Below are positions 4,996 to 64,000 of a DNA stretch of 64,000 bases, piece by piece. The DNA comes from an uncultured Candidatus Saccharibacteria bacterium (GTDB lineage: Bacteria; Patescibacteriota; Minisyncoccia; UBA6257; 2-01-FULL-56-20), in assembly GCA_965231155.1 (NCBI GenBank), contig OZ246418.1, forward strand, positions 238,850 to 302,849. The letters are read 5' to 3'. A program made the translations under genes and the position numbers. Each line of letters opens with the position of its first letter. The first letter of the stretch is position 1. The notes beneath the pieces were generated by a model, which had not been told where the DNA came from, did not search any database, and worked only from the letters and a program-made list of their open reading frames with translations.

Positions 4996-6699
4996 CTATA
5001 CCACCTCGGCCTGATAACACTGCTCACAGTAAACAATCTCCGGACGGTCTGGTGCGTAGGAGGTTTCTATTTCTTTGGCACACTTACTGCAGGTGCGGTG
5101 ATATAGGCGGGGTAGATTTGTCCGGACAAGACGTGCTTTTTGGCGACAACCCTGGCACCTGGTCGGCAGTGGAAGTGTAAATCTCCTCATTAAACTTATC
5201 TCTCCGGGCACAACTCGAAAGGCTTTACCGCACTCTTCGCACCCAATCGTCTCGTTCAATACTGAGTCATTAGTCTTTTCTATCCTGTCTGGAAGATGAG
5301 ATCCTTTAATAGTAATCGAGGGCTGATTTGTCTCTCCCTCATACCAACCAAACCCCTCCCGAGCTGCCTCTTCTTTCGTCTTTGGGAAAAATAACTGGGC
5401 GAGCGTTTCGTTGTAGGCAAATGAAGAAAGACTGCAAGGTAAAAACTCGCCATAAGACCAGATTCTTCCCTGAGAATCAATATAAGGGTTCTTTTTCATA
5501 TCCTCCTCGATCTGTGCCACTAACTTCTCATACACTTCTTTCGGATACTGCTTGTTCAAAATACAGTAGTCTTTACGCTTAAGATTAATACACCCAAATA
5601 CATGCTTCGCAGAAATAGCATAGACTGAGTATTGGTTATCCAGCGCGTCAGGCCAACACTCAAAAGAAAACTTCACATCGCTCGCCCCTTCGCCAATAAC
5701 CGCTCCTTCATATATTCTTTCTGCACCATTCCCCCAACCGGAGTAATCGTAGACATCACGTGCGGCTGGGAAACTCACAAACTGCACAAAACGACCATCC
5801 TCAACACTCGTTATCATGTAGGCATCCTTCACATTCTTCGATTCGTAGACATAATCACCAGTTACGCCCACATTCAGACTATTCCCAACATATACTCTTC
5901 GTGGATGTTTATTCCAAAACTCATAGGCTTTTTTCTGCATGGCTTCCAGAGAAGCACGAGACTGGAGATTCATCTCCTCAAGCTTTTTAAAATACCCTTC
6001 TTTTGTGTATTGCTCATTCCAGATACAGTAGCTCTTACTCCGCAAGTTCACGCATCCAAAACAGTTCGTACAGCCTGTGCAGCTTCGAGAGAACCACAGA
6101 TCGCTACAAGAGTCACACTCCTCAGAGAAAAATGTCTGATAGCACTTACTGCATCCCACATCCTCATAACACAGCTCACTCTCTTTCATTCGATAGCAAT
6201 CGAGTGAGTCTTTAAGTGCATTCAAAAAAGTAGAATAGTAGGCATTTTCACAATAGTCGGCCCAAAAAATAAGATAACTATCTTTGCAGTGACCAAGCGC
6301 GTTTGAGTAATCACAGTTTTTGTTTGTGAGGTAGGCAGCTTCAAGAGCTTGCCAAGGAGTTTTCTCGGCGAGCTCCTTTAGCTGAAGCAAAAACGGTCGA
6401 GAGGGATCATAGTCCATTCCGTACTCAAGACCATCCCAATCATCTGACCACCAACAGGGCATACAGTAGACAGTCTTCTTCTTATCTGGGGAGTAGATAG
6501 TGAGCATGCTCTTTTCACACTTGGCACAGTTACGCTTATAAAGACTCCAGATGTTCGTAAAGGCGAAGCGCCGCATCATTCGACACTCCGGACACCAGGT
6601 CGGCGGAGGAACTGACATTTTTTTATAGAAATCAAAATCCTGGGGTTCGACGGTAAAACTCGCTTTGCAGTTTTGACAACCCTTGGTCTCTGAATTCAT
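4996..6699 (-). CDS. Cysteine-rich multi-zinc-ribbon protein, paralog A (unknown family)
   Basis: 567 aa with >40 Cys. N-terminal CxxC...CPxC ribbon, internally repeated 'FGC(V/I)NL+xKxYCIxNxQYxKExY' units, C-terminal 'RCQGCR...CSKC...CEQC' ribbons. N- and C-termini shared with 6710..8467. Confidence 0.6.
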   Translation of the reverse strand: MNSETKGCQNCKASFTVEPQDFDFYKKMSVPPPTWCPECRMMRRFAFTNIWSLYKRNCAKCEKSMLTIYSPDKKKTVYCMPCWWSDDWDGLEYGMDYDPSRPFLLQLKELAEKTPWQALEAAYLTNKNCDYSNALGHCKDSYLIFWADYCENAYYSTFLNALKDSLDCYRMKESELCYEDVGCSKCYQTFFSEECDSCSDLWFSRSCTGCTNCFGCVNLRSKSYCIWNEQYTKEGYFKKLEEMNLQSRASLEAMQKKAYEFWNKHPRRVYVGNSLNVGVTGDYVYESKNVKDAYMITSVEDGRFVQFVSFPAARDVYDYSGWGNGAERIYEGAVIGEGASDVKFSFECWPDALDNQYSVYAISAKHVFGCINLKRKDYCILNKQYPKEVYEKLVAQIEEDMKKNPYIDSQGRIWSYGEFLPCSLSSFAYNETLAQLFFPKTKEEAAREGFGWYEGETNQPSITIKGSHLPDRIEKTNDSVLNETIGCEECGKAFRVVPGEISLMRRFTLPLPTRCQGCRQKARLVRTNLPRLYHRTCSKCAKEIETSYAPDRPEIVYCEQCYQAEVV

Positions 6700-6709
6700 A
6701 TTCCGCTTA

Positions 6710-8467
6710 TTATACTACTTCCGCTTGGTAGCATGACTCACAGTAAACAATCTCCGGGCGGTCTGGTGCGTAGGAGGTTTCAAAATGTTCGGAGCAAGGA
6801 GTAGCTCCGTGGACGTGAGAGGCATTGTTTTTATAACCATTTTTTCTTGCTTCTTCACCACCACACTCACACTGACGCTCAAAGTAGCGAGGCGGATTAA
6901 CCAATGACGCCCGACGAGCAGCACGACACGGCACGCAGGTTCTTGGTAACGGCAGATTCATCTGTCGTAAAAACTGTAATTCAGAAGCAATGATCCTATA
7001 GGCTCGCTTGCATGAACTGCACTGAATCAATTCCTTTAAAATCTCCTCGCTTACCTCCGCAATGGTCGCTGGCAAACTATCAGCCGTACGTGTTGTCTCG
7101 TACTCTCGGACATCTGGATCTCGCCAAAAAACATTCTTTGCCGTAGCTTCTTCTTTAGTTAAAGGGAAGATTTCTTGGCGGGCGGTTTCATTATAGGCAA
7201 ACGGAGAAAACTCATCAGGACAAAATTCGCCATACTTATATATATTTCCCTTTGCATCCTTATAAGGCAATGCATTCATCTGCTCGATAATCTTCGGCAC
7301 TAAACGTTCGTACTCTTCTTTCGTGTACTGTTTATTCAAGATACAGTACTGCTTTTTCTTCAGAGAAACGCACCCAAAACAATCGGAAGATGAGCGACAG
7401 AAGAATGCGTACTCCATCGCCCGACATGAGGGCCAGGACTCAAAGCAAAACTTTTCCTGATTACATTGATCACCACAGGTCAGACACTCATACATCTGCG
7501 TGGCATTATTCCCCCAAGGACCATAGTCGTAACAGTCTTTTGTGCCAAGGTAAATATTATAAAGATACTTACTGTCCTGGGCGTCGTCTACAAAATAACT
7601 CGACTTCACATTCTTTACATTGTGTAGGTAATCCCCACTCGAATCAATAATCCGAAATCCCCGATAATATTTATTTGGAAAGGCCAGAGAAAACTCCCGA
7701 GTCTTTTTGAGCGCTGTCTGAAGACCACTCCAGGAATCTAGTTTCAGTTCGGCTATCTTTTTTTCATACTCCTCTTTACTGTACTGCTCATTAAAGAAGC
7801 AAAATGACTTCCCTCGTTGATTTACGCACCCGAAACAGTTCGTGCAGTTGGTACAGTTTTTAGAAAACCAGACATCAACACAGGCTTCGCAGTCCTCGGA
7901 AAATACTGTGCGATAGGAGTTATTCACCGACACGCACTCATACGAAGACTGGTTATCATTAGAAAGGGCGCAGTCAAAACAGGCGGTACACGCCGTACAC
8001 TGAGTTGTATAGGCCGAATCTTCCATGCGGTCACCATTAAAACAGAGATAGCAATTTTTAAAATAACCAGCCTGGTCACAGTAGTCAGAATTAACCATCC
8101 CCTGCACACTCTTCGATGGCCAGGGTACGGAGTAGAGCAGCTCTCTGAACTGTTCAAAGAAAGGACGAGAGAAATCATACTCGCGACCGTACTGGAGCGG
8201 GTCCCAGGCGTCTGATTTCCAGTACTCGTGATCGTAGACCGTGCTTTGAATGTTCGGTGGAAAGCCAGAAAATATCTCTTTCCCAGAAGCATCATCTTTC
8301 CGTCGAAAAAGTAGCCGGCCGTTCCGCCAGGCCAGACGCCGTTTTAACCGACACTCTGGACAGAAGGTCGGTGGAGGCACAGCCATCTTTTCATAGAATC
8401 CAAAATCTTGCGGTTCAATACTGAAATTCGCTTTGCAGTTTTGGCAGGTGCGGTTTTCTGATTCCAT
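6710..8467 (-). CDS. Cysteine-rich multi-zinc-ribbon protein, paralog B
   Basis: 585 aa, same architecture and motif order as 4996..6699; identical C-terminal 'ETSYAPDRPEIVYCE(Q/S)CYQAEVV'. Confidence 0.6.
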   Translation of the reverse strand: MESENRTCQNCKANFSIEPQDFGFYEKMAVPPPTFCPECRLKRRLAWRNGRLLFRRKDDASGKEIFSGFPPNIQSTVYDHEYWKSDAWDPLQYGREYDFSRPFFEQFRELLYSVPWPSKSVQGMVNSDYCDQAGYFKNCYLCFNGDRMEDSAYTTQCTACTACFDCALSNDNQSSYECVSVNNSYRTVFSEDCEACVDVWFSKNCTNCTNCFGCVNQRGKSFCFFNEQYSKEEYEKKIAELKLDSWSGLQTALKKTREFSLAFPNKYYRGFRIIDSSGDYLHNVKNVKSSYFVDDAQDSKYLYNIYLGTKDCYDYGPWGNNATQMYECLTCGDQCNQEKFCFESWPSCRAMEYAFFCRSSSDCFGCVSLKKKQYCILNKQYTKEEYERLVPKIIEQMNALPYKDAKGNIYKYGEFCPDEFSPFAYNETARQEIFPLTKEEATAKNVFWRDPDVREYETTRTADSLPATIAEVSEEILKELIQCSSCKRAYRIIASELQFLRQMNLPLPRTCVPCRAARRASLVNPPRYFERQCECGGEEARKNGYKNNASHVHGATPCSEHFETSYAPDRPEIVYCESCYQAEVV

Positions 8468-8494: not shown

Positions 8495-9094
8495 TTAACT
8501 GCGAATCATGCCCGCCTTCTGCAGTATCTCGTACTGATTAGGATTAAAACGTTTGATATACTCGATAATTTTTCCGGTTTTTCTGACCTCGGTGGAAATA
8601 CCTTTCTCCTCTAGGAAAGCGAGAATCTTTTTCTCGGCTTCTTCGGCTTTTAAGGCATCCTCGACCATGAGCTCAACCTCTCCTAGCTCAAAGCCAAAGT
8701 CTGCCTTATCAAGATCAACTGCAAACTCCTGATTCCTATATTTTCGACGCGTGGAGACAACTCGGCAAAAGACTGTATACCCACAAGCCTGCAGTTCTGT
8801 CTCGAGGGAAGATTCTTTAGGTAAATCGAGAGCAGTTTTTATTGCTTCGTCATCCTCAAGCTCTTCATATTGATTAGCTTTTCGCTTATCAAACTCCCAT
8901 TCATTATTAACTGGTTTTTTCAGTTCGAACCTCCCGTTTCTTTTTCTTAACCAAAAGTCCCGAGTGGTCAGTCCGTAATCTGCGGTATCATAATAAGCAT
9001 CATCAATCGTCTTTTCAGAGAGGAGCTGGGCTCCTTCGATTAATTTTTTCTCAGCTTCTCCCTCTAAGCTCACTTTTATTTCTACTTCAATCAT
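8495..9094 (-). CDS. CYTH-domain protein (thiamine-triphosphatase-like triphosphate tunnel metalloenzyme)
   Basis: N-terminal 'IEVEIKV' ExExK motif; 'DAYYDTADYGLTTRDFWLRKRNGRFELK' resembles ThTPase/CYTH core. Confidence 0.7.
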   Translation of the reverse strand: MIEVEIKVSLEGEAEKKLIEGAQLLSEKTIDDAYYDTADYGLTTRDFWLRKRNGRFELKKPVNNEWEFDKRKANQYEELEDDEAIKTALDLPKESSLETELQACGYTVFCRVVSTRRKYRNQEFAVDLDKADFGFELGEVELMVEDALKAEEAEKKILAFLEEKGISTEVRKTGKIIEYIKRFNPNQYEILQKAGMIRS

Positions 9095-9103
9095 ACTTAG
9101 TAA

Positions 9104-9667
9104 CTATTTCTGACGGAGCTGATAGATTTGAGTATCGTAGCCTCTTTTCTCTTCGTCACCACGAGATAATCCTAGAGATTCTAAGGCTAGGAAAAGATCT
9201 TCTTGCACTTGTCCCGGATCAATGTCGTCAGTGGTTAGCTTCTCAAGCTCCACAAACGAACCAAGCTCCGCAACCTCATCAAGACAGATCTCATATTCTC
9301 CAAACCTTCCTTTGCGACGAACTTTTTTTACTTCAACTTGCGGTCGATAGCCCATAATTAATAATATCTGATGAATCGCCTCCGGGTCTTTGACCTCTGA
9401 TTCATACTCAATGTTGTCTAACTCGCTCGAACGTTGTTGCTTGAGATTAAATTCTGCTTTGCCATCTTCACGACGAATTCGAACTACGACATGACCAGTT
9501 TTTGACTCATCCCACTCATGGGTACTTCCTCCGAAAGAGTAGATAACATCGTGCTGATGGATGGGCGCCGAGAGAAAGCAACCTCTTTTTTCAAGCTGAG
9601 TCTTCAACTCCTCGAGACTGGAGACCCTCAGTTTAATTTCGATCTCACGCATATTTTTTGAAAACAC
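9104..9667 (-). CDS. CYTH-domain protein (CyaB-like class IV adenylate cyclase / triphosphatase)
   Basis: 'REIEIKLRV' ExExK motif; 'ILLIMGYRPQVEVKKVRRKGRFGEYEICLDEVAELGSFVELE' matches the CyaB fold pattern. Confidence 0.75.
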   Translation of the reverse strand: MFSKNMREIEIKLRVSSLEELKTQLEKRGCFLSAPIHQHDVIYSFGGSTHEWDESKTGHVVVRIRREDGKAEFNLKQQRSSELDNIEYESEVKDPEAIHQILLIMGYRPQVEVKKVRRKGRFGEYEICLDEVAELGSFVELEKLTTDDIDPGQVQEDLFLALESLGLSRGDEEKRGYDTQIYQLRQK

Positions 9668-30191: not shown

Positions 30192-30215
30192 ATATGCAAT
30201 TCTCAAAGGACTTTT

Positions 30216-30244
30216 ATAATACATTAATTATGGAGATGAGTCAA
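30216..30244 (-). promoter_or_regulatory. ssrA promoter TTGACT-17-TATTAT
   Basis: Consensus-like hexamers about 25 nt upstream of the mature tmRNA 5' end. Confidence 0.5.
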
Positions 30245-30355
30245 TTTCTTGGATAAATTAAGAAACTCACCTTTGGCAGATTACATAAAAATGTTTATCA
30301 TGAGGACAAAGCTCGACAAACAAAAATGTTTATAAATGTTTCACGATAAACACAC

Positions 30356-37078: not shown

Positions 37079-37226
37079 GTAGGAAGGATGGCTATATCAA
37101 AAAGCGTATTGCTTTAGGATGCCATCTATTCTACAGAAAACGGGGAAAGAGTCAAATTTTAAGGAGAGGCCTCTCTGCTCAAAATTTCTGTTTGACACGC
37201 TCTTCACCATCCCCAATAATTCAAGC

Positions 37227-37910
37227 ATGTCCACACAATCATACGAAGTAGAAATTAAGAGTCTTCTGGGTAGCAAGGAAAATGCCGATGCTCTTAAAAA
37301 GCGGTTGTTCGAACTCGACCCACACACTACCCTTGTCTCGACCAACAAACAACTTAATCACTATTTTGTAGGTGGTGATCTAAAGAAGGTCTTCGAGAAT
37401 GTTGGCCCCCTACTGAAACCAGAAGAGAGGACGCGCTTAGAAAGTCTTCTTCAGAATATCAAAGACTTTTCTTTACGCACTCGAAACAAGGATGGCGAAG
37501 TGATCTTTGTTCTCAAGATTTCCATGAATGACGAAACGAGCGCCAATGGCGTGAAGCGATTAGAGTTTGAAGCAACCATTCCAGATCTCAGTCTCGAAGA
37601 ACTCGATAAAAAAATTCTAGATGCCGGCTTTTCCTATGAGGCCAAGTGGTCTCGAGAGCGGGAGGAGTATAAGTACAAAGACACAACCGTCACGATTGAT
37701 AAGAATGCTGGCTATGGCTATCTCTCCGAGTTTGAACTTATGGAAAGTGACGAAAATAAAATTCATGAAGCGAAAGATCGTTTACTGGCCTTAATGAAAG
37801 AACTCGGTGTCGAGGAGCTTGATCAGGCTCGCTTGGCGAGAATGTTCGACTACTACAATACACACTGGGCTGAGTATTATGGCACGGACAAAGTATTCGA
37901 AGTATTGTAA
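37227..37910 (+). CDS. CYTH-domain protein (third triphosphate-tunnel enzyme in the window)
   Basis: 'YEVEIKSLL' ExExK, 'RLEFEATIP', 'YKYKDTTVTID' CYTH beta-strand motifs. Confidence 0.7.
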   Translation: MSTQSYEVEIKSLLGSKENADALKKRLFELDPHTTLVSTNKQLNHYFVGGDLKKVFENVGPLLKPEERTRLESLLQNIKDFSLRTRNKDGEVIFVLKISMNDETSANGVKRLEFEATIPDLSLEELDKKILDAGFSYEAKWSREREEYKYKDTTVTIDKNAGYGYLSEFELMESDENKIHEAKDRLLALMKELGVEELDQARLARMFDYYNTHWAEYYGTDKVFEVL

Positions 37911-45904: not shown

Positions 45905-45911
45905 AATAGGG

Positions 45912-45983
45912 TGCGCCCGCTTGGAATCGAACCAAGGACCCACGTCTTATAAGGGCGTTGCTCTACCACTGAGCTACGGGCGC
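45912..45983 (-). tRNA. tRNA with anticodon UAU (Ile, AUA-decoding) by hand fold
   Basis: Acceptor GCGCCCG/CGGGCGC, D-arm GCTC/GAGC, anticodon stem ACGCC/GACGT (one mismatch) with loop CTTATAA, T-arm CTTGG-TTCGATT-CCAAG. Confidence 0.7.
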
Positions 45984-46017
45984 AATATTCTTAGTGTACT
46001 ACGCAAAAATCAGAAAG

Positions 46018-49682: not shown

Positions 49683-50906
49683 CTACTCGTCCTCTTCATC
49701 TGGAGGAGCCACCACAACTGGTGCATCCTCAACTACGCCGGCCACTCCCCCTTCCTGAGCTTCATCTGGATGAGCTTGTGAACGCACATCAATCTTCCAG
49801 CCGGTGAGACGCGCGGCTAAACGAACGTTCTGTCCACCACGACCAATAGCGAGACTCAACTGATCCTCGCCGACATACACACGAGCTTCTCGGCGTGGCA
49901 AGATCTCCACGCTCTTTGCTTTGGCTGGAGAAAGTGAGGCGCCCACAAACTTCTCGGGATCTTCTGACCACTCAATAATATCAATCTTCTCCTGACCAAG
50001 TTCGTTGTTCACTGCCATCACACGAGTTCCTCTCTGACCGACACAGGCGCCCACTGGATCAACTCCCTCAACGTGCGAAGCAACCGCAATCTTTGTGCGA
50101 TTTCCTGGTTCACGTGCAATCGACTTTATTTCGCAGGTACCATCAGCAATTTCTGGCACTTCAAGTTCAAACATCTTGCTCACAAAATTTGGATGAGAAC
50201 GAGAAAGAATAATTCCTGGTAAACGAGTGTCCTCCTGAACTGCCAAAACCAAAAATCGTAATCGTTCCCCCGGTCGGTAGTGTTCGCCAGGAATTGATTC
50301 GTTAGCAAACATCACACCAACTGCCCGACCCAAATCAATATAGACATGTCCACGTTCAAAACGTTGCACCACACCACTTACCACCTGACCTTCTTTTGTT
50401 CTCCATTCATTTAAAATGGAATCTCTTTCTGATTCACGCAAGCGCTGTAAAATAACTTGCTTTGCAGCCTGCGCGGCGATACGTCCAAAATCCTCATGAG
50501 ACTCTAGTGGAAAAGTAACCTCGTCACCCAAAGCCAATTCTTTTTCTGGAAAAAGTTTCTTGGCTTCATCGATCATAATGTGACGCTCAGAATTATATCG
50601 AGGAAGTTTTTCTTCGTCTGAAAGAAATTCAGATTCATCCCTCCTTCTTGGTTCAAATACTTCTGGCTCTTCTCCTTCTTCGGCGATGCGTACGGAATTC
50701 TCATCAACAACTGTTTTCACCTGCCAGAAAGACATCGTGCCAGTTTTCGCATCAAGCTTTGTTTTAATAACCTCTCCCCTTTTTCCATATTCTTTTTTGT
50801 ACGCAGAAGCAATTGCCGCTTCGACTGCCTCTAAAACTTTCTCCGCAGACAATCCTTTTTCGTCGGCCACCTGCTGAACTGCTTTTCCGAGATCTTTAAG
50901 ATTCAT
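49683..50906 (-). CDS. nusA: Transcription termination/antitermination factor NusA
   Basis: N-terminal domain, S1 and tandem KH domains. Confidence 0.9.
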   Translation of the reverse strand: MNLKDLGKAVQQVADEKGLSAEKVLEAVEAAIASAYKKEYGKRGEVIKTKLDAKTGTMSFWQVKTVVDENSVRIAEEGEEPEVFEPRRRDESEFLSDEEKLPRYNSERHIMIDEAKKLFPEKELALGDEVTFPLESHEDFGRIAAQAAKQVILQRLRESERDSILNEWRTKEGQVVSGVVQRFERGHVYIDLGRAVGVMFANESIPGEHYRPGERLRFLVLAVQEDTRLPGIILSRSHPNFVSKMFELEVPEIADGTCEIKSIAREPGNRTKIAVASHVEGVDPVGACVGQRGTRVMAVNNELGQEKIDIIEWSEDPEKFVGASLSPAKAKSVEILPRREARVYVGEDQLSLAIGRGGQNVRLAARLTGWKIDVRSQAHPDEAQEGGVAGVVEDAPVVVAPPDEEDE

Positions 50907-51211
50907 TAAAATTAATTATATAAGGTTTAAAAAATCCGCTTAAACGCGGATATAATATCGACCTTATCCACAATATCATAGAAAAACTCTCTGTCAACTA
51001 CTCGAGTTTACTTTCCTGCCCCTATCCAAAAGGCATAACGGCCAGAAAAATAAGCTCTTCGTTTATGGCAGGCAGGCCCAATGATCTGAAAGGTAACAGT
51101 CTCGAATAAGTGGTAGACAGGTCCGTAAGGTTCTAAAGAAACGAAAGTTTCGAACTACGGTAAACGTAATCCTGTCTCTCTATATAATGAACAAAAGCTC
51201 TCATTAGGCTC

Positions 51212-51607
51212 TCAAGCAATATTTTCATAGTGGTTATAGGTATAGGTCTTTGCCCCTGGATCAAGAGAGATGGCAATCAGGTCTATCCGCCATCCCTTCT
51301 CCGACTCAATCAGCTCCTGGTGTTGGTTGGCAAACCAGGAACAAACCTTTTTAAGCCTCATAAGCTTTCCTTTTGTGAGGTTATCCTCTGGTTTTAGCTG
51401 ATAAACATTTTTGTTTATCAAAGTTTTTACTTCGAAGAATACCAGCTCTCTGTCCCTAGATATTCCTACTATATCTATTTCTCCGAAATTCTTCCTATAG
51501 TTTCTCTCAATAACCGAGAATCCTACTGATTCTACTATATAACAGGCAATATTTTCACCTATTCTTCCTATATTATCCTTGTTGCCAGATTCTTTTGCCA
51601 TAAGCAA
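51212..51607 (-). CDS. YraN-family (UPF0102) endonuclease-like protein
   Basis: 'GENIACYIVESVGFSVIERNYRKNFGEIDIVG...FFEVK' family motif. Confidence 0.75.
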   Translation of the reverse strand: MLMAKESGNKDNIGRIGENIACYIVESVGFSVIERNYRKNFGEIDIVGISRDRELVFFEVKTLINKNVYQLKPEDNLTKGKLMRLKKVCSWFANQHQELIESEKGWRIDLIAISLDPGAKTYTYNHYENIA

Positions 51608-52170
51608 TATGTTTAGCGCTAAACAATTTCTTCTATATTAGTGTTTATCATCCAGTACGGATGATATATAGATACTAAAGATATTCATAATATTCCATTA
51701 AAATGTTTGTCGACAAACAATACTGGCTATTTTATTGGCTCAATCGATCGATTGAGCCAATAAAATGTTTGTCGACAAACATTTTTCCACTATATCCTGG
51801 ATAATTACCATAATTTGTTTAGCGACAAACACTTCTATCCGCGTATATAATGTTTATCGCTAAACAACATATTTTTGATAAACATTTTTGTTTATCAAAT
51901 AGTCCCTATAGCAAAAAAGAGCCTAAATTGTTTGCCGGATAGGGAGCACCTATCAAACCTATCTTTCACATAAACCTTAATATAGTTGTTATATTTTGAC
52001 AACTATAAACACAATTGTTTATCATATTCTGGTATCTCCAAAAAGCTCTAGAAACAGAATTGTTGGTCGATATTCTGATTCTAGGAAAACAACGTAAAAA
52101 AACACCTCACAAAAAAATCCCTTCTCACTGCAGGAGTAATAAGTTGATTTTTCTCATCTTCATTTCTACA
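51608..52170. promoter_or_regulatory. AT-rich intergenic region dense in palindromic operator-like repeats (TGTTTA/TAAACA half-sites)
   Basis: TGTTTAGCGCTAAACA, ATGTTTGTCGACAAACAT (x2 flanking a 32-bp perfect palindrome ttattggctcaatcgatcgattgagccaataa), TGTTTAGCGACAAACA, TGTTTATCGCTAAACA, TGATAAACATTTTTGTTTATCA, TGTTTATCA x3. Confidence 0.4.
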
Positions 52171-52172
52171 AT

Positions 52173-52514
52173 ATGACAATGCTTACTGAACAAGAAATCG
52201 AAAAATATAGAATCATTTTAGAAGACGAGCGAAAGAAGTTGGCACAAGAAGTGAAGGGTGACGAATCTCCTATCGAGTTTGAAGATGAAGCGACAGAAGA
52301 CTTTGATGCAGAAGCTGATGAGGCAGAAGAATTGGGAAATGAATTGTCTGTTGGAGATACGGTGCGCGAACGACTGAATCAGGTTGATGAGGCTCTGGAG
52401 AAAATAGAAAACGGCACATATGGAATTTGCGAAGAGTGTGGCCGAGTGATCTCTGAGAAAGTTCTTCATGTAGCCCCTGAATCAATTTTGTGCGCCGAGT
52501 GTAAGCAACGATAG
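52173..52514 (+). CDS. DksA/TraR-family C4 zinc-finger protein
   Basis: Acidic coiled-coil N-terminus and 'CEECGRVISEKVLHVAPESILCAECK' zinc finger. Confidence 0.7.
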   Translation: MTMLTEQEIEKYRIILEDERKKLAQEVKGDESPIEFEDEATEDFDAEADEAEELGNELSVGDTVRERLNQVDEALEKIENGTYGICEECGRVISEKVLHVAPESILCAECKQR

Positions 52515-52544: not shown

Positions 52545-54071
52545 ATGAGCGTCCAGAATCTGGCGACGCTTTATTCCGCCGAGCTCGAAGGTGTTGATGC
52601 ACGGCTTATTGAAGTTGAGGTCGACCTGAATGTTGGCCTCCATTCGTTTACGATTGTTGGTCTGGCTGACAAAGCACTGAACGAGGCGAAGGAGCGAGTA
52701 AACTCAGCGCTCAAGAATTCTGGCGTAAAACCACCGAACCAAGAAAATCGGAGGATTACCATAAGCCTCGCACCAGCTGATGTAAAAAAATCTGGTTCGC
52801 AGTATGATCTGGCGTTAGCGCTTGGATATTTAGCGGCGACAAAACAGATTGCCCCATTCGATACAAAAAATAAAATATTCGTCGGCGAGTTGGCGCTTGA
52901 TGGACGCGTTCGTCCAGTGAGTGGTGCTTTGAGTATTGCTGAGATGGCCGGACGCCTGGGATTTTCTGAAATATATTTACCCACAGAAAATGCTCACGAA
53001 GCTTCCGTGATTAAAAATATTTCGGTTTTTGCCGTGTCTCGATTACAAGACGTTATTGTACACCTGGAAAATAAATCCCTTCTTCATCCGACGGTCTTTA
53101 CGCACGAAGCAGAGGAGAGAATTTCGACGATCGACTTTTCTGAAATTAAAGGGCAGGGGAATGCCAAGCGTGCACTACTAATTGCCGCAGCTGGCGGACA
53201 TAATGTCCTCCTAGTGGGTAGTCCGGGAGTAGGGAAGAGTCTTCTCGCTCAGGCGCTTTCCGGAATTCTTCCACCACTGAATCTCGAAGAAGCAATTGAG
53301 GTAACAAAAATTCAAAGCGCCTCAGGACTTCTACCTAAAGGGCTAATTACTGACCGCCCATTTCGCGCTCCTCATCACACGGCCTCATCCGTGGCGATCG
53401 TGGGCGGTGGACCACAACCAAAACCTGGAGAGATAAGTCTCGCCCACCGCGGTGTTCTTTTTCTGGACGAGGTTCCGGAGTTCCAGAGAAATGTATTAGA
53501 AGCGTTGCGCCAACCATTAGAAAGTGGGAGTGTGAACATCTCGAGAGCGAAAGGAACACTCACCTTTCCGGCGCGCTTTTCCTTGGTTGCCGCTATGAAT
53601 CCCTGTCCGTGTGGTTTCTTTGGCGATCAGGAAAAAGAATGTCGTTGTGGCGCATATGAAGTGATCCGTTATCAGAAAAAAATATCCGGCCCACTTTTAG
53701 ACCGTATCGACTTACAGGTCAGAGTTCCTCGAGCCAAAATTGAAGAATTACAAAAAAGGAATGAGGGTCTAAAAGAAAACGCAGATATTAGGGAGCAGGT
53801 AACGCGCGTACGTCAGATTCAAGAAAAACGATTTCGTTCTCTCCCGATTCAGGTCAATGCTGAAATGTCCTCAAAACACACTGAGGAGTTCGCGCCCCTC
53901 ACTCCGCAAGCTCACGACTTTATGTTCTCTCTCAAAAACCACCACCTCTCTCCCCGGGGTTATTATCGACTACTAAAAACCGCCAGAACTATTGCCGATC
54001 TGGAAGAAAAAGAAATTGTTGACCTTCCCCATGTGGCTGAAGCGTTTAGCTATCGATTGCGAGAAGAGTAA
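52545..54071 (+). CDS. comM: YifB/ComM-family Mg-chelatase-like AAA+ ATPase
   Basis: Lon-like N-domain, Walker A 'LVGSPGVGKSLLA', Mg-chelatase ChlI-like core. Confidence 0.85.
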   Translation: MSVQNLATLYSAELEGVDARLIEVEVDLNVGLHSFTIVGLADKALNEAKERVNSALKNSGVKPPNQENRRITISLAPADVKKSGSQYDLALALGYLAATKQIAPFDTKNKIFVGELALDGRVRPVSGALSIAEMAGRLGFSEIYLPTENAHEASVIKNISVFAVSRLQDVIVHLENKSLLHPTVFTHEAEERISTIDFSEIKGQGNAKRALLIAAAGGHNVLLVGSPGVGKSLLAQALSGILPPLNLEEAIEVTKIQSASGLLPKGLITDRPFRAPHHTASSVAIVGGGPQPKPGEISLAHRGVLFLDEVPEFQRNVLEALRQPLESGSVNISRAKGTLTFPARFSLVAAMNPCPCGFFGDQEKECRCGAYEVIRYQKKISGPLLDRIDLQVRVPRAKIEELQKRNEGLKENADIREQVTRVRQIQEKRFRSLPIQVNAEMSSKHTEEFAPLTPQAHDFMFSLKNHHLSPRGYYRLLKTARTIADLEEKEIVDLPHVAEAFSYRLREE

Positions 54072-57435: not shown

Positions 57436-59307
57436 TTGCTTTTTTCTATGCTCGACGACTCAAGAAAATGGACTCTTATCGTGCTTGGACTTGTGCTCAT
57501 AGTGAGCGTTTCTAGTTTTTTCTTCACCGGATTCTCACCAGAAAAAAGACCTGGCCAACTCGATATCACTGGGACAAAAAACCAAAACTCCTCACCCTTA
57601 AGGAGCGGCTATCAAACGGGGAACTCCTCGGGACAGGAAGCTGCGATAATGGAACCAGTGAGGCTCCCATCTTCAAACGCCACTGAAAATTTAGCCTATC
57701 TTCTTTCTAATAATACTGCCATCTCCTACCAGGCTGGAGTGGCTACGAAAGGCGCCTTCGCTCCGGTTTCTAAAGAGGCAGTGAGTGCGGCGGTTACCCT
57801 TGTCGCCACCAAGGCATTAGAAGAAACAAATGTCACTCCCTCCACTTTTGTAGTTATCGAAAAACCAACCATCAAGGAAGTAGAAACATATTTTGAACAA
57901 GTTACAAAGATTCTCAAAGAAGAGGCAACTAATCCAGCCGTTGATCAGGTAGCGAAGAATGGAATAACTCTGACGAAGATACGTGCGGCTCAGGCCGTTT
58001 TCGCAACACAGGAGAAAAAAATCCTTGCCCTCAAGGTTCCAAAGAATTTTTTAGAAGTTCATAAAAAACTTCTTTCACTCACAAGAAATTACCGTTTGTT
58101 CTTTGAAAGCGCAGCCCACTACAAAGATGATCCGCTAAAGGCAGTATTCGTAGTTCAAAATAAACAACCACTACTGGCTCGACAGGGGAATGATCTGGTT
58201 AATGAAATAAAGAAACTCACCACCAAGAAGGCAGCGCTTACACCAACTCCTCTTGAAGAACTTTTAGGAATCAAGAAGGTTGAAGCCCAACAAGCAGTTT
58301 TTGACGCCACTGTTTTCGGCCAGGCCATAGCGAACTTTGCCGAAGACGTAGCCTTCTACGCAGAAGACCTGGCTAACTGGGCAACAGAATACGCTCAAAA
58401 AATACTCGAGTGGACGAGAAAATTAGCTACTGAACAGATGAAAAACACTCTCATACAACTTTTTGTGAAACAGACCGTTGGGTGGGTAAATGGCGGGGGA
58501 GAGGCTCAGTTTGTAACCAACTGGAAGCTTTTCGCTCAAGATGCAACGGCTCGAGGAACACAAAAAGGATTTACCGAAATTTCTGACTCGGCATGCGCCA
58601 CATTTGGACCATCAATTATCAGACAGCTTGGTGATTCTTATAACACCTTTTATCGTCCAGAAAATTGCCGTAAAAGCCCCACCGGAGAAGCTCTCGGTCA
58701 GTTTAGAGATAATAACTTTTTTGATGGAGGGTGGGGAGCGTATGGCTTAGCAATTAGTCCGAAAGGAAACTACTTCCAGAGCTATGTCGAGAACTCAACA
58801 AAGATTGGAGAACTTGCGGCTGAAGAAAAAGAAGCGGCCCAAAATGATGCCTTGGCCAATAGTGGTTTCAAATCAACAAAAATCTGTATCGACACTCCAG
58901 GAACTCCTGCACCAGATCCAGATGGGAGCTGTCCAGATGGTTCCGAACCGATAAATACAACCCCCGGAGTGGCACTGAAGGCAACGCTCGACAAAGCGCT
59001 TCAGGCTCCTGTGGATCGCATCGCAAACGCCGATGACTTGGTTGATTTGGGTTTTATTCTCTCCAACTCAGCACTTTCTAATATAGTAAGCGCCAAAGAA
59101 AAGGGTCTTTCCGGTCTCCTGGGTGGTGGCAATATAGCTGGTAGTCCAACTGATCCAGCCAATCTAAACCTGGAAAGTACCTGCGCCTCCTATGAGGAAA
59201 ACTCCACTGAATACTCCAGTTGTATGCTGATCGCCGGTGCTTCTACCGGATCAGCTTCACAAATCATCACCAATTTAGATAATCAGATTACGACTGCTCA
59301 GCAGTAG
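57436..59307 (+). CDS. Large signal-anchored extracytoplasmic protein, paralog 1 of a tandem pair (unknown family)
   Basis: TM 'WTLIVLGLVLIVSVSSFFF'; ~250-aa block 'LEWTRKLATEQMKN...FGPSIIRQLGDSYNTFYRPENCRK...DGGWGAYG...DGSCPDGSEP' shared with 59408..61864. Confidence 0.55.
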   Translation: MLFSMLDDSRKWTLIVLGLVLIVSVSSFFFTGFSPEKRPGQLDITGTKNQNSSPLRSGYQTGNSSGQEAAIMEPVRLPSSNATENLAYLLSNNTAISYQAGVATKGAFAPVSKEAVSAAVTLVATKALEETNVTPSTFVVIEKPTIKEVETYFEQVTKILKEEATNPAVDQVAKNGITLTKIRAAQAVFATQEKKILALKVPKNFLEVHKKLLSLTRNYRLFFESAAHYKDDPLKAVFVVQNKQPLLARQGNDLVNEIKKLTTKKAALTPTPLEELLGIKKVEAQQAVFDATVFGQAIANFAEDVAFYAEDLANWATEYAQKILEWTRKLATEQMKNTLIQLFVKQTVGWVNGGGEAQFVTNWKLFAQDATARGTQKGFTEISDSACATFGPSIIRQLGDSYNTFYRPENCRKSPTGEALGQFRDNNFFDGGWGAYGLAISPKGNYFQSYVENSTKIGELAAEEKEAAQNDALANSGFKSTKICIDTPGTPAPDPDGSCPDGSEPINTTPGVALKATLDKALQAPVDRIANADDLVDLGFILSNSALSNIVSAKEKGLSGLLGGGNIAGSPTDPANLNLESTCASYEENSTEYSSCMLIAGASTGSASQIITNLDNQITTAQQ

Positions 59308-59407
59308 GGGAATTTCTGTTTTATTTTTGGTTGTGTATATCTGAAACGCTCACGAAAGAGTCGGTTTTGCCCTATAATATAGAAGGTGGAATACGTTTCG
59401 CCCTCTT

Positions 59408-61864
59408 ATGCAACCGGATCTTAAAAAACTGATTACGGCATTTTTGGGAGTAGCACTCTTAAGTAGTGCTTTTAGCCTTGCTTTTATGCACTCCGGCGCC
59501 TTCCAGAATGAAAACGGAACAAGTAATGCTAACGGAGGTCTAACCCAGGAACAACGAAATGCATTCGCAGACATTTCTCTGGTTACTCCTCCCTGGAGAA
59601 CCTCTCAGGCTTTCAGCACTTCCGAGCCTGATATATTTACTTCTTCGAATCTGACTGAAAACTTTTCTCAGGCTCTTTCAAATGGAGTTTTTGAGGCTGC
59701 CAACAAAGAAAAGGCCTTTGATCAAGATAGTCTTAGTCGTGCAGTGGAAAAAATACAGTCCCGTATTTTTGAAGAGCCTCAAGTTCCTCTCCGCGATATC
59801 CAGATGAACGACAAGGCCAGCTGGGAAGAAAAAGTTGGCTATGTGAAAAGTGTTCGGGACATTATCAAAGAAACTGCTGAAAATCCTCTCTATAAAAATC
59901 TTGGTACAACAAAACTGGACACCGAACAAACCGAGGCGCTAAAAACTCTTTTCGAAAAACAACGAGGGCAGATAGTAACACTGAAAGTTCCAAAGGTAAT
60001 GGTGCCACTACACAAGGCCCTTCTCTCTTATAATTCTGGAAATCAAAAATTCTTCGAAGGACTAGGGGCATATGAAAAAGACCCGGTAAAAACTCTTCTG
60101 ATGCTTCAGCACAGAGAAGAACTACTTGGCGGTTATGCCACCAAGCTGATTGCCGAGCTCGACAATGTTGGTCCAGCCCTCAAGGTAAGTTATCTGGAAG
60201 AAAATAAGCCCTCTTGGATTCAGGATAGCGTTCTCTCCCTCTTTGCACCAAAAGTGGCTTACGCGACTGCACCGGTTATCGATTACTCAAACCTGGCGAA
60301 CGCGATTGCCAGCTTTATTGGTGATGCTATCAAGTATGCAAAAGATGCAGCCCACTTTATTAAAACCGAACTTGATGCCGCTCTGAAATGGGTGCAGACA
60401 CAACTCGAATGGGCAGAAAAGTTAGCCACTGAACAGCTGAAGAATGTCCTTGTTCAGTTGATGGTCCGCGCCTCTGTGGCCTGGGTAAACGGCGACGGCT
60501 CACCTCAGTTTGTAACCAACTGGCGTGTCTACACTGATGATGCCTTTGGCCTGGGGGTTGGAAAGGGCCTCGATGAAATCTCTGACGAAACCTGCGGAAT
60601 GTTTGGGCCTTCTATGATCAGACAGCTTGGCGATTCTTATAATACTTTCTACCGCCCCTCGAACTGTCGACAAACAGAAACCGGTCGAGCGTTAAGCACT
60701 TTTAGGAACAATAATTTTCAGGATGGAGGATGGGGGGCTTATGGTGTAGCCGTTAGTCCAAGAGGGAATTATTTCCAGAGCTATGCGAGAAATGCCGAAA
60801 AGATAGATCAGAGCGCCGAAAAAGAAGCTGAAGCAGCAATCAGTGACGCAATGGCTAGCAATGGATACAAACCAACCAAGGACTGTCCCGAATATGCCAG
60901 ACAAGCTCTCTCTAGTGAAGATTCAGCAAGTAGTCCTGCTGAGGGAGGTGAATTTTCTACAGACCCTCTTCCGGACGGAAGTTGTCCAGATGGTTCGGAA
61001 CCTCAGAACACCACGCCAGGAGCGATTATTGGCGAGGTTGCGAACAAAGCCTTCACTATCCCTGGTGATCGCATCGTAACTTCACAAAACCTTATTAGTC
61101 TTGGCTTCACCCTGGCAAACGGCGCCCTGACAAAAGTTATGACGGCAAAGAACAAGGGGCTCACAAGCCTAAACGATGGCGCTGCCCTCGGAGCTGCCGG
61201 AGAAAATGCCTCTTACAACCTTGCAGATACATGTTCTCGTTTTGCCTCTGGCACTCCTGGAAGAACCGACTGTCTCAATAATGTTGGTGCGGCCGAAGAG
61301 GTACAGACAAATCTTGATCTCAGAAATGCCAGCACTTCTAGACAGGCAGCTGATGATCAAGCACTGAGCAACCTGAAGAGCGATGCTGATAGTATCGCCC
61401 AGAACATAAACTCAACGATTTCTATTAATACAGAAACTATGTCTGTTATTAATGAACTCACTGTTGATCCCGATCTTCTTGGTCGAGTGATCCATATCTG
61501 CGGAAATCTAGGATTAAGCGAGCCTGGGCAGGAACGAATTCCTGAGGCACGAAGTCTTCAGGCCGACCTAGCGCAGTTAGGTCAAAACATCCCAGGAACA
61601 AATGTTGATAGAGATCTGATGGCAGCTCACCTATCAATCCTGAATCAGTCTAGAGATGCGAATCTACTACCAAGTTTGTTTACTCAGTTCACTACGAATT
61701 ATGGGACTGTTGCATCAACAACTGATGCCCTTTCTTTTGCCCAGAATCGCCGTGTCGCTGTCCGCCAGATTAAAGTCCAAGCCGAAGCCACCATCGCCAA
61801 GGCTTGCGATCCTTCGACTCCGTTTTCGACTTCCACAATTCCTGCCCTCATCCAGAACCCATGA
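59408..61864 (+). CDS. Large signal-anchored extracytoplasmic protein, paralog 2
   Basis: Same conserved block as paralog 1 ('LEWAEKLATEQLKN...FGPSMIRQLGDSYNTFYRPSNCRQ...DGGWGAYG...DGSCPDGSEP'), plus a longer C-terminal region. Confidence 0.55.
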   Translation: MQPDLKKLITAFLGVALLSSAFSLAFMHSGAFQNENGTSNANGGLTQEQRNAFADISLVTPPWRTSQAFSTSEPDIFTSSNLTENFSQALSNGVFEAANKEKAFDQDSLSRAVEKIQSRIFEEPQVPLRDIQMNDKASWEEKVGYVKSVRDIIKETAENPLYKNLGTTKLDTEQTEALKTLFEKQRGQIVTLKVPKVMVPLHKALLSYNSGNQKFFEGLGAYEKDPVKTLLMLQHREELLGGYATKLIAELDNVGPALKVSYLEENKPSWIQDSVLSLFAPKVAYATAPVIDYSNLANAIASFIGDAIKYAKDAAHFIKTELDAALKWVQTQLEWAEKLATEQLKNVLVQLMVRASVAWVNGDGSPQFVTNWRVYTDDAFGLGVGKGLDEISDETCGMFGPSMIRQLGDSYNTFYRPSNCRQTETGRALSTFRNNNFQDGGWGAYGVAVSPRGNYFQSYARNAEKIDQSAEKEAEAAISDAMASNGYKPTKDCPEYARQALSSEDSASSPAEGGEFSTDPLPDGSCPDGSEPQNTTPGAIIGEVANKAFTIPGDRIVTSQNLISLGFTLANGALTKVMTAKNKGLTSLNDGAALGAAGENASYNLADTCSRFASGTPGRTDCLNNVGAAEEVQTNLDLRNASTSRQAADDQALSNLKSDADSIAQNINSTISINTETMSVINELTVDPDLLGRVIHICGNLGLSEPGQERIPEARSLQADLAQLGQNIPGTNVDRDLMAAHLSILNQSRDANLLPSLFTQFTTNYGTVASTTDALSFAQNRRVAVRQIKVQAEATIAKACDPSTPFSTSTIPALIQNP

Positions 61865-63810
61865 TCTCAACACTCTCTTCCTGGAAAAAGTTTTTCGTTA
61901 TAGGCCTTCTTTTTTTAGCCCTCTTCTCTCAGGCTCTCTCTCCTGTACACGCAGCCAGTAGCACAGTTAACTTCCAGGCAGTGGCCAAAGAAGGACCAAC
62001 GACAAATCCTTGTGCGTGGAGAAGTCCTTCAACTTGGCCGGCCTGTTTCCTGGTTGCCGCTGCGTATCCCATTGGACTACTCGTCAGCTTCGGAGCTTAT
62101 CTTGTTGAGTGGGGGCTTATCATCAACTCTGAACTCGCCTACACCGAGATGATCAAGGGGGGATTTGGTGTTACCTTGGGAATTACGAACCTTTGTTTCG
62201 TGCTGGCTATTATCGTCATCGCCATAGCCACCATTATTGGCTACGAGTCGTATGGGATGAAAAAGAATCTGTGGAAGCTCATTGTGGCAGCTTTGTTAGT
62301 GAACTTCAGTTTGGTTATTTGTTCGGTCATCATTAGCTTCTTCGATCAGTTCGCCTACTACTTTGCAAGTAAGATGGGAAATCAAGGGTCAGGGCATTCT
62401 GGAGTTTCTCTCCAGTTGGCCAATATGTTCCAGTTAAACAAACTCGCCGCTTGGAGTTTCGGTGGAACATTAAGTAGGGTAGGCGCCTTCGTGGCAGTAC
62501 TTATAGGAATTCTATTGGCCGAGATATTGATCTTCTTCACCCTGATGGCGGTGGCCTTGAGTCTCATCGTTCGTTACTTCTATCTCTCGATTCTCATGAT
62601 TCTCATGCCTATCGCCTGGCTCAGCTGGGTAGTTCCAGGAATGCAAAAACACTGGAGCTCGTGGTGGGAAAAATTCATTCAGTGGGCGATCAGTCCAGCA
62701 CTCCTTCTGGCCTTTCTCTACATCGGCCTCTCTATTATGTCGAGCACCTCGACCACCGATACGCTTCAGCGATGGAACATTGCAGGGCGAGGTGGGGCTG
62801 GAGATGTCATAGATAATGTAGCCCCGCCAGAAGGAGGTGGTCCAGGATTCCTCGAGACTATTATGAAGATGTCAGTTGGACTGGCGTTGACCTGGGGTGG
62901 TATTGTAGCCGCCAACTCCGCTGGCGCGAAAGGCGCAGCCACCATTGTTGGCTGGGGAAATAAAGCGGGTAAGGTGGCAAAAAATCGTGCCACAATATTT
63001 GGGAAAAGAGCAGCAACTTATCGTCTACGACGACCCCAAGGGAGGGCCACAACCGAACGCATGCAAACCCTAGGAAATAACAGCAACAGCGCCTTCCTTA
63101 GAACCATTGCTGCTCCGGTCAGAATGGCTGGCACTGCGCTCTCGAATGCCAGAATAGAAGGAGAAAAAACACTCCACGAGTCAGAGAAGGCATACAAAGA
63201 TATGCCATTAGTAGAACAGGCACGACGTTTTGGCTCGACTCGTTTCGAAGACGAGGGTGCTCGATTTGCCATTCTTCACAATATTTACAAACCAATAGAA
63301 GAAGCCGAGAAGAAACAACGCGACCTTATTGAGAAACGAGAAGAAATCGAAAAGAGGAGAACCAAGGTTGACACCGAAAGAAGACGAACCTTCATAGAAA
63401 AAGGCGAAGGCTCGGCTGAGTACAAGGCTGTCACCGAACGGGCAACGAAGATAGAGAACGAATACACAGAGGTGAATGGAAATATTACGAAAGCTCATGC
63501 AGAAGTTGTGAAAACCCAAAAACTTCTTGATTTACTACCGAAGAATGCTCGCGAAGATCTCGGAACATTTAGCAATCTAACCAGCCTGCCCGGTCGCGTA
63601 GGAGATGTGAAATATACAAACACCAAATATGGAAGAATGTTCGTCCTTTATGGCGAACATGAAAAGAAACATAAAAAATCGCTCGAAGACGAGCTCAAAG
63701 AACGTTTTTCGAAAAAAGAAGATGACCATGGGGATGGTCACGACGCAGCGGGAGGTCATCCGGCGCCACAAGCTCCCACCTCAGGAACAGCAGACGAAGC
63801 CCATCACTAA
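61861..63810 (+). CDS. Polytopic membrane protein with a long charged coiled-coil C-terminal tail (VirB6/TrbL-like topology)
   Basis: ATGA start/stop overlap with the upstream gene; signal peptide 'MISTLSSWKKFFVIGLLFLALFSQALSPVHA'; at least 6 TM helices; K/E/R-rich ~250-aa C-terminus. Confidence 0.5.
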   Translation: MISTLSSWKKFFVIGLLFLALFSQALSPVHAASSTVNFQAVAKEGPTTNPCAWRSPSTWPACFLVAAAYPIGLLVSFGAYLVEWGLIINSELAYTEMIKGGFGVTLGITNLCFVLAIIVIAIATIIGYESYGMKKNLWKLIVAALLVNFSLVICSVIISFFDQFAYYFASKMGNQGSGHSGVSLQLANMFQLNKLAAWSFGGTLSRVGAFVAVLIGILLAEILIFFTLMAVALSLIVRYFYLSILMILMPIAWLSWVVPGMQKHWSSWWEKFIQWAISPALLLAFLYIGLSIMSSTSTTDTLQRWNIAGRGGAGDVIDNVAPPEGGGPGFLETIMKMSVGLALTWGGIVAANSAGAKGAATIVGWGNKAGKVAKNRATIFGKRAATYRLRRPQGRATTERMQTLGNNSNSAFLRTIAAPVRMAGTALSNARIEGEKTLHESEKAYKDMPLVEQARRFGSTRFEDEGARFAILHNIYKPIEEAEKKQRDLIEKREEIEKRRTKVDTERRRTFIEKGEGSAEYKAVTERATKIENEYTEVNGNITKAHAEVVKTQKLLDLLPKNAREDLGTFSNLTSLPGRVGDVKYTNTKYGRMFVLYGEHEKKHKKSLEDELKERFSKKEDDHGDGHDAAGGHPAPQAPTSGTADEAHH

Positions 63811-64000
63811 CGATCTACTTTCTCCACTAAACTACACACACCTACATGCCAGAAGATACACAAATGACCAATGAAGAAATCCGCGAGATGCTTGTCACGG
63901 CACCAGTCTGGGACAGTATTGTGTGGGATGCTATTCAGGAAGGAGATTACGCGCTCGTAGAGTCTCGTTTTGCAGATCTTCTTAAGGGTGAGTTGGAAAG

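Follow-up and report, generated by a model that had tools for sequence, protein, structure and literature searches.

The palindrome array between yraN and dksA

The stretch analyzed here, 64,000 nucleotides of contig OZ246418.1 from an uncultured Candidatus Saccharibacteria bacterium (the window), contains a 571-bp spacer (51602–52172) between the nuclease gene yraN on the minus strand and a dksA-like/comM operon on the plus strand. The spacer has a GC content of 31%, compared with roughly 39–52% when the window is read in 2-kb windows. Within 51610–51866 are five 16-bp palindromes that fit the form TGTTTRNCGNYAAACA exactly, their starts spaced irregularly at 94, 62, 50 and 35 bp. We propose that the spacer is probably a chromosomal centromere-type array, in which degenerate parS sites load ParB and the promoters of yraN and of dksA-comM are embedded. 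The genes, the putative sites and the related elements are as follows.

51212–51601, minus strand: yraN (UPF0102), a PD-(D/E)xK nuclease gene (Pfam PF02021, E = 1.3e-15); its 5' end abuts the array
51399–51420: 22-bp everted palindrome inside yraN, at codons LINKNVYQ, identical to the one at 51876; kept in the homologous locus L002 at 8877–8898
51610–51625: parS-like site 1, TGTTTAGCGCTAAACA, 8 bp upstream of the yraN ATG (51601–51599); the commonest site type across homologous arrays
51642–51650, plus strand: isolated arm TGTTTATCA; TGTTTATC is an arm also used by array sites (45 of 802 arms)
51704–51719: parS-like site 2, TGTTTGTCGACAAACA, overlapping the −35-like TTGTCG of a leftward promoter-like site
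51729–51766: 38-bp perfect palindrome, ATTTTATTGGCTCAATCGA followed by TCGATTGAGCCAATAAAAT, between sites 2 and 3; arms 100% complementary
51766–51781: parS-like site 3, TGTTTGTCGACAAACA, which with its AAAA/TTTT flanks is an inverted duplicate of site 2 (20-nt arms, 100% complementary)
51816–51831: parS-like site 4, TGTTTAGCGACAAACA
51851–51866: parS-like site 5, TGTTTATCGCTAAACA; the TATAAT of a promoter-like GCGACA-18-TATAAT stands just before it
51876–51897: 22-bp everted palindrome TGATAAACATTTTTGTTTATCA, that is TGATAAACA-TTTT-TGTTTATCA, 10 bp past the last site
51980–52026, plus strand: region of the predicted dksA-comM promoter, TTGACA (51996–52001)-18-TATCAT (52020–52025), 11 of 12 consensus matches
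52173–52514, plus strand: DksA/TraR-type C4 zinc-finger gene (Pfam PF01258), first in the rightward operon
52545–54071, plus strand: comM (yifB), a Mg-chelatase-like AAA+ helicase gene (Pfam PF01078, E = 2e-93)
30292–30352: mini-cluster between the tmRNA gene and open reading frame (ORF) 30356, with TGTTTATCA (30292), CGACAAACA (30316) and the hybrid site TGTTTCACGATAAACA (30337–30352)

These sequences are strongly concentrated. The window has 6 occurrences of the pattern TGTTT-N6-AAACA where 0.07 would be expected, and 8 of TGTTTATCA where 0.72 would be, both far above chance. Arm hexamers (TGTTTR/YAAACA) number 16 in the yraN–dksA spacer, or 2.8 per 100 bp, and 10 in the 8,698 bp of the 36 other spacers of the window, or 0.11 per 100 bp, a difference of about 25-fold. 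Four of those 10 fall in the spacer 30192–30355, and these two spacers are the only ones in the 64 kb to hold the motif. In the mini-cluster there, the hybrid at 30337 combines one canonical parS arm with one variant arm and is accompanied by three further arms. ORF 30356 encodes a membrane protein and is followed by a uracil-DNA glycosylase gene.

The initial annotation, which had drawn attention to the spacer, took an equal motif density in other AT-rich spacers as the result that would speak against its reading; with the density so high in one spacer, the motif is not a general property of AT-rich spacers. Every operator-like palindrome that it listed is present (51610, 51704, 51766, 51816, 51851 and 51876), and some of its details need correction. 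The 18-mer ATGTTTGTCGACAAACAT, given as occurring twice, is exact in the second copy, and the first copy ends in ...ACAA. The perfect palindrome flanked by these copies was put at 32 bp and in fact spans 38 bp. Instead of three isolated copies of TGTTTATCA, the spacer has two (51642 and 52016); the other two copies in it are part of the 22-mer.

Homologous arrays and the link to yraN

A metagenome scan for two sites 19–49 bp apart found homologous arrays in at least 120 loci, with GC contents of 27–65% and 2–11 strict-form sites each; the counts below refer to the listed matches. The highest count rises to 13 sites if any base is allowed at arm position 6. Of the TGTTTNNCGNNAAACA sites in 453 kb of listed loci, 401 are no more than 300 bp from an array and 2 are farther away. 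The logo of 354 homologous sites reads aAAW-TGTTT-R-(G44/C29/T22/A5)-CG-...-AAACA-WTTt; site variation is confined to arm positions 6–7. Across contigs of 27–65% GC, the arms are invariant and the flanks have diverged. Some relatives carry perfect tandem units, of 9 x 52 bp in locus L152 and of 36–37 bp in L125.

The arrays keep close company with yraN, which adjoins or overlaps the array in 80 of 121 listed loci, always with its 5' end towards it. Other neighbors include nusA (31 loci), comM (25) and dksA (24). Of the loci anchored on ComM, only those with nusA-yraN upstream of dksA-comM carry arrays (L002 with 6 sites, L004, L005, L013 and L014), and at least 15 related Patescibacteria loci that have dksA-comM with another upstream neighbor contain zero palindromes. 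Judged by these neighborhoods, the element follows yraN rather than dksA-comM. Clustering of the neighboring genes in the listed loci revealed no candidate regulator gene that travels with the array. In L014, a 144-aa ORF (5374–5808) sits between yraN and the array and by eye resembles a LAGLIDADG homing endonuclease.

In an alignment with L002, whose ComM is 80% identical, the background has diverged, and the palindromes with their A/T flanks (AAW...WTT), the everted 22-mer and the promoter block stand out from it as conserved islands. The core GGCTCRATCGATCGAWTGAGCC of the 38-bp palindrome is also kept there. This palindrome has a predicted DNA hairpin of −16.3 kcal/mol (z −8). Logan contig SRR14271372_2904 ends within it (at about window position 51737) and many metagenome contigs terminate at arrays; the locus thus breaks assemblies, and the array accounts for the frequency of such breaks.

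A full TGTTTRNCGNYAAACA site also occurs inside 27 of 82 array-linked yraN genes (e.g. in L160, L157, L134 and L082), where it falls on the codons M-F-(S/A/V)-(A/G/D)-K-H (ATG TTT AGC GCT AAA CAT). The YraN of the window has WFANQH at the equivalent position (51310–51330), without the site. At this position TTT accounts for 41 of 52 Phe codons (background 58%), AAA for 26 of 29 Lys codons (background 65%), and the third codon ends in C in 42 of 72 cases (background 26%). The number of matches to the 12 fixed bases has a bimodal distribution, with 20 perfect genes and just 5 at 9–11. By these counts, codon choice at the intragenic position is skewed to retain the site.

The everted palindrome has the consensus TGAYAAACA-WWWW-TGTTTRTCA with a spacer of exactly 4 bp. 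With this spacer it is found in 45 copies near arrays (98 kb) and in 2 elsewhere (426 kb). In 33 of 78 arrays it follows the last site at a distance of 4–11 bp, on the flank opposite yraN. The gene next to it is mostly dksA (14 of 21 loci), and the copy beside the array is conserved in L002 at 9372–9393. We read this pattern as that of a separate conserved part, which closes about 40% of arrays in a stereotyped manner.

Relation to parS and ParB

Published work (PMC5450999) describes ParB-family centromeres as 16-bp palindromes that have CG at the center and a 5' end rich in T, and takes the canonical site as the mark of chromosomal Par systems. All five sites of the spacer share this build, each being a 16-bp inverted repeat whose outer arm is T-rich and whose center is CG. 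Compared with canonical parS, TGTTTCACGTGAAACA, the form TGTTTRNCGNYAAACA has the same length and the same central CG; 12 of 16 bases are equal, and all 12 fixed positions match. In a search with the canonical consensus allowing at most 2 mismatches, the five array sites were not recovered, each having 4 mismatches (positions 6, 7, 10 and 11), and only the site at 30337 reached 2. Because of these 4 mismatches we file the sites as a variant parS class and not as canonical parS. A search of the accessible literature found neither the exact site sequences nor a link of parS to Patescibacteria.

In homologous yraN-linked arrays, canonical parS is interchangeable with the variant sites, and the parS reading turns mainly on this observation. 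The canonical arm TGTTTCAC makes up 34 of 802 arms. One array (L189) packs 13 sites into 540 bp, among them 3 perfect copies of TGTTTCACGTGAAACA and several hybrids; in two others (L115 and L170) the first site is a perfect canonical parS; and four more (L085, L164, L166 and L188) contain many hybrids with the arm TGTTTCAC. We estimate the chance expectation for one perfect 16-mer in 0.8 Mb at about 0.0004.

Related sites also occur beside par genes in other settings. Six contigs of high GC content (about 64%; L132 at 8294–8351, L155, L161, L184, L193 and L200) have the order yidC, rsmG, two TGTTTGTCGATAAACA sites 41 bp apart, parA and parB. Their ParB has GLDRSS and GHALVLL, with the contact residues K171, S172 and R204 changed. 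In Clostridia contigs, 3–4 sites lie directly upstream of a gene of the ParB family, followed by parA, and the contact residues of this ParB are changed as well. The ParB encoded beside the low-GC array of L172 was considered as a ParB of the candidate phyla radiation (CPR) and discarded, since the protein proved to be from Clostridia.

Patescibacteria relatives do encode parA-parB (L205, L206 and L015). No parS-like site was found within 10 kb of parB in L205, L206 and L208–L210, so their parS must be elsewhere. Among 120 Patescibacteria ParB homologues (P0262–P0380; L205 10825–11985), GKSR is kept and GHAR is replaced by SQ(A/G)R in 93 of the 94 that could be scored. The resulting signature is NESQ(A/G)R for canonical xxGHAR, that is G201S and H202Q in Caulobacter numbering; R173, which reads the G of TG, is retained. 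Four specificity residues have been mapped, residue 201 among them; the base that it faces is A in parS, whereas the Noc site has C (PMC7383237). That base is at the position that is degenerate in these arrays.

A ParB gene and an array can probably be placed together in one case. The longest contig of ParB P0340 has 660,562 nt, and the contig of the 7-site yraN array L166 also has 660,562 nt; one genome very probably holds both. In the organism of L166 (L208, 10001–15667), parB is an orphan without adjacent parA and lies beside relA/spoT, topA and the transformation gene dprA.

Gene neighborhood and promoters

The window is part of a Patescibacteria (Paceibacteria-like) chromosome. To the left of the spacer, the minus strand carries tyrS, clpP, ppa, nusA and yraN. 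To the right, the DksA/TraR gene and comM are followed on the plus strand by uvrD, ksgA and a type IV secretion-like cluster. A preprint (bioRxiv 10.1101/2024.02.06.579203) describes YraN as the nuclease that acts with the ComM helicase to resolve the displacement loop (D-loop) of natural transformation.

Arm copies overlap the predicted dksA-comM promoter, a strong promoter-like site, where a degenerate everted pair, CTATAAACACAATTGTTTATCA, lies at 52003–52024. An inverted repeat, ATAGTTGT...ACAACTAT (51982–52006), embraces the −35 element TTGACA and is conserved in L002 (about 9454–9480); this repeat may act as an operator of its own. Further promoter-like sites, weaker ones, overlap palindromes 2, 4 and 5.

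Several further features of the window were recorded. The gene-free 305-bp gap between nusA and yraN (50907–51211) contains a perfect DnaA box, TTATCCACA, at 50964; it gave no Rfam match even at a permissive threshold. A permissive Rfam scan of 50800–52300 yielded only sub-threshold matches to plant microRNA hairpins, and a known RNA was discarded as an account of the locus, the scan at gathering thresholds having returned only the tmRNA and tRNAs elsewhere. A tRNA-Ile gene with anticodon TAT is at 45909–45984, and three CYTH-domain genes (8495–9667 and 37119–37910) include two in tandem. The type IV secretion-like cluster (57436–64000; L207 11986–18194) consists of large unannotated proteins followed by TrbL_3, PrgI, TraC-like and VirB4-like ATPase proteins; homologues of its 818-aa protein hold the same position in many relatives.

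Interpretation and alternative explanations

Given the site architecture and distribution, the mixing with canonical sites and the ParB signature, we infer ParB binding, clamp loading and a role in segregation as the likely explanation of the array. Patescibacteria ParB dimers would nucleate at each of the five sites and at the arm copies through their helix-turn-helix domain, with R173 reading TG and the G201S/H202Q change sitting where ParB contacts the variable bases. ParB would then shut as a clamp dependent on cytidine triphosphate (CTP) and slide onto flanking DNA. The outcome would be a dense partition complex for chromosome segregation, and probably for SMC loading too. As the yraN and dksA-comM promoters are inside the array, ParB occupancy probably modulates both, damping or timing expression of the YraN nuclease/ComM helicase pair.

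Several observations weigh against this interpretation. Each site differs from canonical parS at 4 positions, and the canonical A at arm position 7 is the rarest base there (5%), so a ParB paralogue or another protein could be the binder. The packing of 5–13 sites at 35–95 bp spacing is far denser than in the chromosomal parS clusters that have been described. A pure segregation role does not predict the strict tie to the yraN 5' end or the codon-kept intragenic site. The tie between P0340 and L166 is one of equal contig size only. Finally, neither parA nor parB is found in the 64-kb window or its extensions (10 kb left, 6 kb right), so ParB is assumed for this genome and not shown. A parS array also leaves the everted palindrome, the link to yraN and the role of the 38-bp palindrome unexplained.

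The initial annotation had offered several roles for the spacer, among them a multi-operator control region for dksA/comM, a partition-type element and a replication element. The partition-type role has gained support, from sites with parS architecture and from the canonical parS interleaved in homologous arrays. Control of dksA/comM is at most secondary: arm copies do overlap the predicted promoter, but the element tracks yraN and at least 15 dksA-comM loci lack palindromes, for which reason an obligatory dksA/comM operator was rejected. The replication role is unsupported; the skew switch to be looked for at the spacer does not occur, third-position GC skew having the same sign on both sides, and no DnaA box (at most 1 mismatch) lies in the spacer.

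An unlikely alternative, though the best of those we weighed, is an operator array for a dimeric repressor other than ParB, such as a competence or DNA-damage regulator, acting on the divergent yraN and dksA-comM. Where yraN adjoins the array in the listed loci it always does so with its 5' end, palindromes and arm copies of the array overlap promoter-like sites, and its neighbors yraN, comM and uvrD are recombination or repair genes; the second mini-cluster likewise precedes an operon with a uracil-DNA glycosylase. Maintenance of a site within yraN and the arms that the commonest array site shares with the KorA operator TGTTTAGCTAAACA fit such a repressor too. However, dksA-comM loci without upstream yraN carry no site, the motif is present at one locus and defines no regulon, and up to 13 sites would be excessive for one small gene. 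Perfect canonical parS within arrays would have to be a coincidence, no candidate regulator gene accompanies the array, and the invariance of the motif from 27% to 62% GC calls for a universally conserved binder. A regulon box of the LexA, competence or LacI type was rejected, the motif occurring in only two spacers of 64 kb and being absent upstream of dksA-comM without adjacent yraN.

It is also improbable, and suggested by analogy, that the array, the intragenic yraN site and the everted palindrome form one composite module. ParB-CTP clamps would be stalled or latched at the everted palindrome by a partner, as KorA does for KorB, silencing yraN and dksA-comM and tying the D-loop nuclease/helicase pair to the segregation cycle.

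We regard it as very improbable that the spacer is oriC or a DnaA-titrating locus, in which TGATAAACA/TGTTTATCA would serve as divergent DnaA boxes next to AT-rich DNA that unwinds. The spacer is AT-rich, the genes are divergent, the total GC skew flattens at 52 kb and a perfect TTATCCACA lies at 50964. The 9-mer TGATAAACA is 7/9 identical to the Caulobacter G-box TGATCCACA. Since genes switch strand at 52 kb, the flattening of total skew is a coding-strand effect, as the values by gene class, all expressed on the plus strand, show.

Left genes on the minus strand: GC3 skew −0.149, four-fold-site skew −0.03
Left genes on the plus strand: GC3 skew −0.189, four-fold-site skew −0.30
Right genes on the plus strand: GC3 skew −0.107 (−0.094 with the 6-kb extension), four-fold-site skew −0.19

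To the left of the spacer the replication-linked component of the skew is about −0.17 and to its right about −0.06, which is a weakening and not a reversal. In 51602–52172 there is no DnaA box (TTATCCACA, at most 1 mismatch), the nearest being the one at 50964, and dnaA, dnaN, recF and gyrB are absent from the window and its extensions. Without a sign switch in skew or a cluster of DnaA boxes, the spacer is not oriC.

Least credible is an array made of local duplications without function or of a short palindromic repeat that is selfish: sites 2 and 3 do form an inverted duplication around the 38-bp palindrome and some relatives have perfect tandem units (the 9 x 52 bp of L152), but the arms stay invariant while flanks diverge on contigs of 27–65% GC, the position beside yraN is fixed, the site inside yraN is kept up at codon level, and the motif is absent from other window spacers (arm density 0.11 per 100 bp), 30192–30355 being the only other enriched one. 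A centromere of a mobile element or phage was rejected, no array having been found in viral contigs.

Should ParB bind the spacer, it would be a CPR centromere of unusual design, with degenerate parS sites packed as densely as on plasmids and a ParB clade reading them in which a mapped specificity residue is changed. Such a ParB-loading array would be a natural test case for the drift of ParB–parS specificity and would provide a simple sequence marker of the segregation locus for thousands of uncultured genomes. Through the embedded YraN/ComM promoters and the codon-kept yraN site, it would also offer a testable tie between chromosome segregation and natural transformation.

Comparison with known systems

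Chromosomal parS (TGTTTCACGTGAAACA), first found in Bacillus subtilis, shares with the array the 16-bp palindrome, the outer pentamers TGTTT/AAACA, the central CG and clustering in one region, and canonical copies occur in homologous arrays. It differs in that its arm positions 6–7 are CA, whereas those of the array are degenerate (R, then G/C/T), and in that a few sites are spread over kilobases, whereas the array packs 5–13 sites into 0.25–0.55 kb. The array lies beside yraN and not beside parAB, and Patescibacteria ParB has S201/Q202 in place of G201/H202.

The plasmid F centromere sopC consists of 12 repeats of 43 bp, every unit with a 16-bp inverted repeat. Such tandem plasmid centromeres resemble the array in having many close 16-bp palindromes with a central CG, as do the parS clusters on secondary replicons of Burkholderiales (PMC5450999), and the periodic units in L152 and L125 extend the likeness. 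Unlike the sopC type, the array is chromosomal among housekeeping genes, has no adjacent parAB and no viral contig match, and is irregularly spaced in the window, where it does not form constant head-to-tail units beside parAB on a mobile replicon.

In plasmid RK2, with the operators OB (TTTAGCGGCTAAA) and OA (TGTTTAGCTAAACA), KorB is a CTP-dependent sliding clamp that KorA latches at promoters (PMC11790492). The commonest array site has the arms TGTTTAG/CTAAACA and TTTAGC/GCTAAA in common with this system, and the layout is alike: loading sites and one distinct nearby palindrome of related arms, beside promoters. The array sites are 16 bp long, and neither the 13-bp TTTAGCSGCTAAA nor the 14-bp TGTTTAGCTAAACA of the IncP operators. 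Furthermore, no KorA-like gene was found, and a latch role for the everted palindrome would be pure analogy.

Noc, a ParB paralogue whose specificity has switched, and its binding site (NBS, TATTTCCCGGGAAATA; PMC7383237) offer a parallel in that ParB-family specificity shifts through residue 201 and bases near the palindrome center. In contrast to that system, the G of TG and R173 are retained in the arrays and ParB here, and the sites are at one locus, whereas NBS are dispersed over the chromosome.

Streptococcus pneumoniae has parS beside comCDE, and ParB spreading is reported to modulate competence there (PMC4488948), a precedent for the modulation of promoters proposed here. The two cases would share parS next to transformation genes with an effect on their expression; they differ in that S. 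pneumoniae has a single canonical site beside regulatory genes, and the window a dense variant array beside a nuclease/helicase pair. Taken together, the array resembles chromosomal parS clusters in its proposed function and plasmid tandem centromeres in density.

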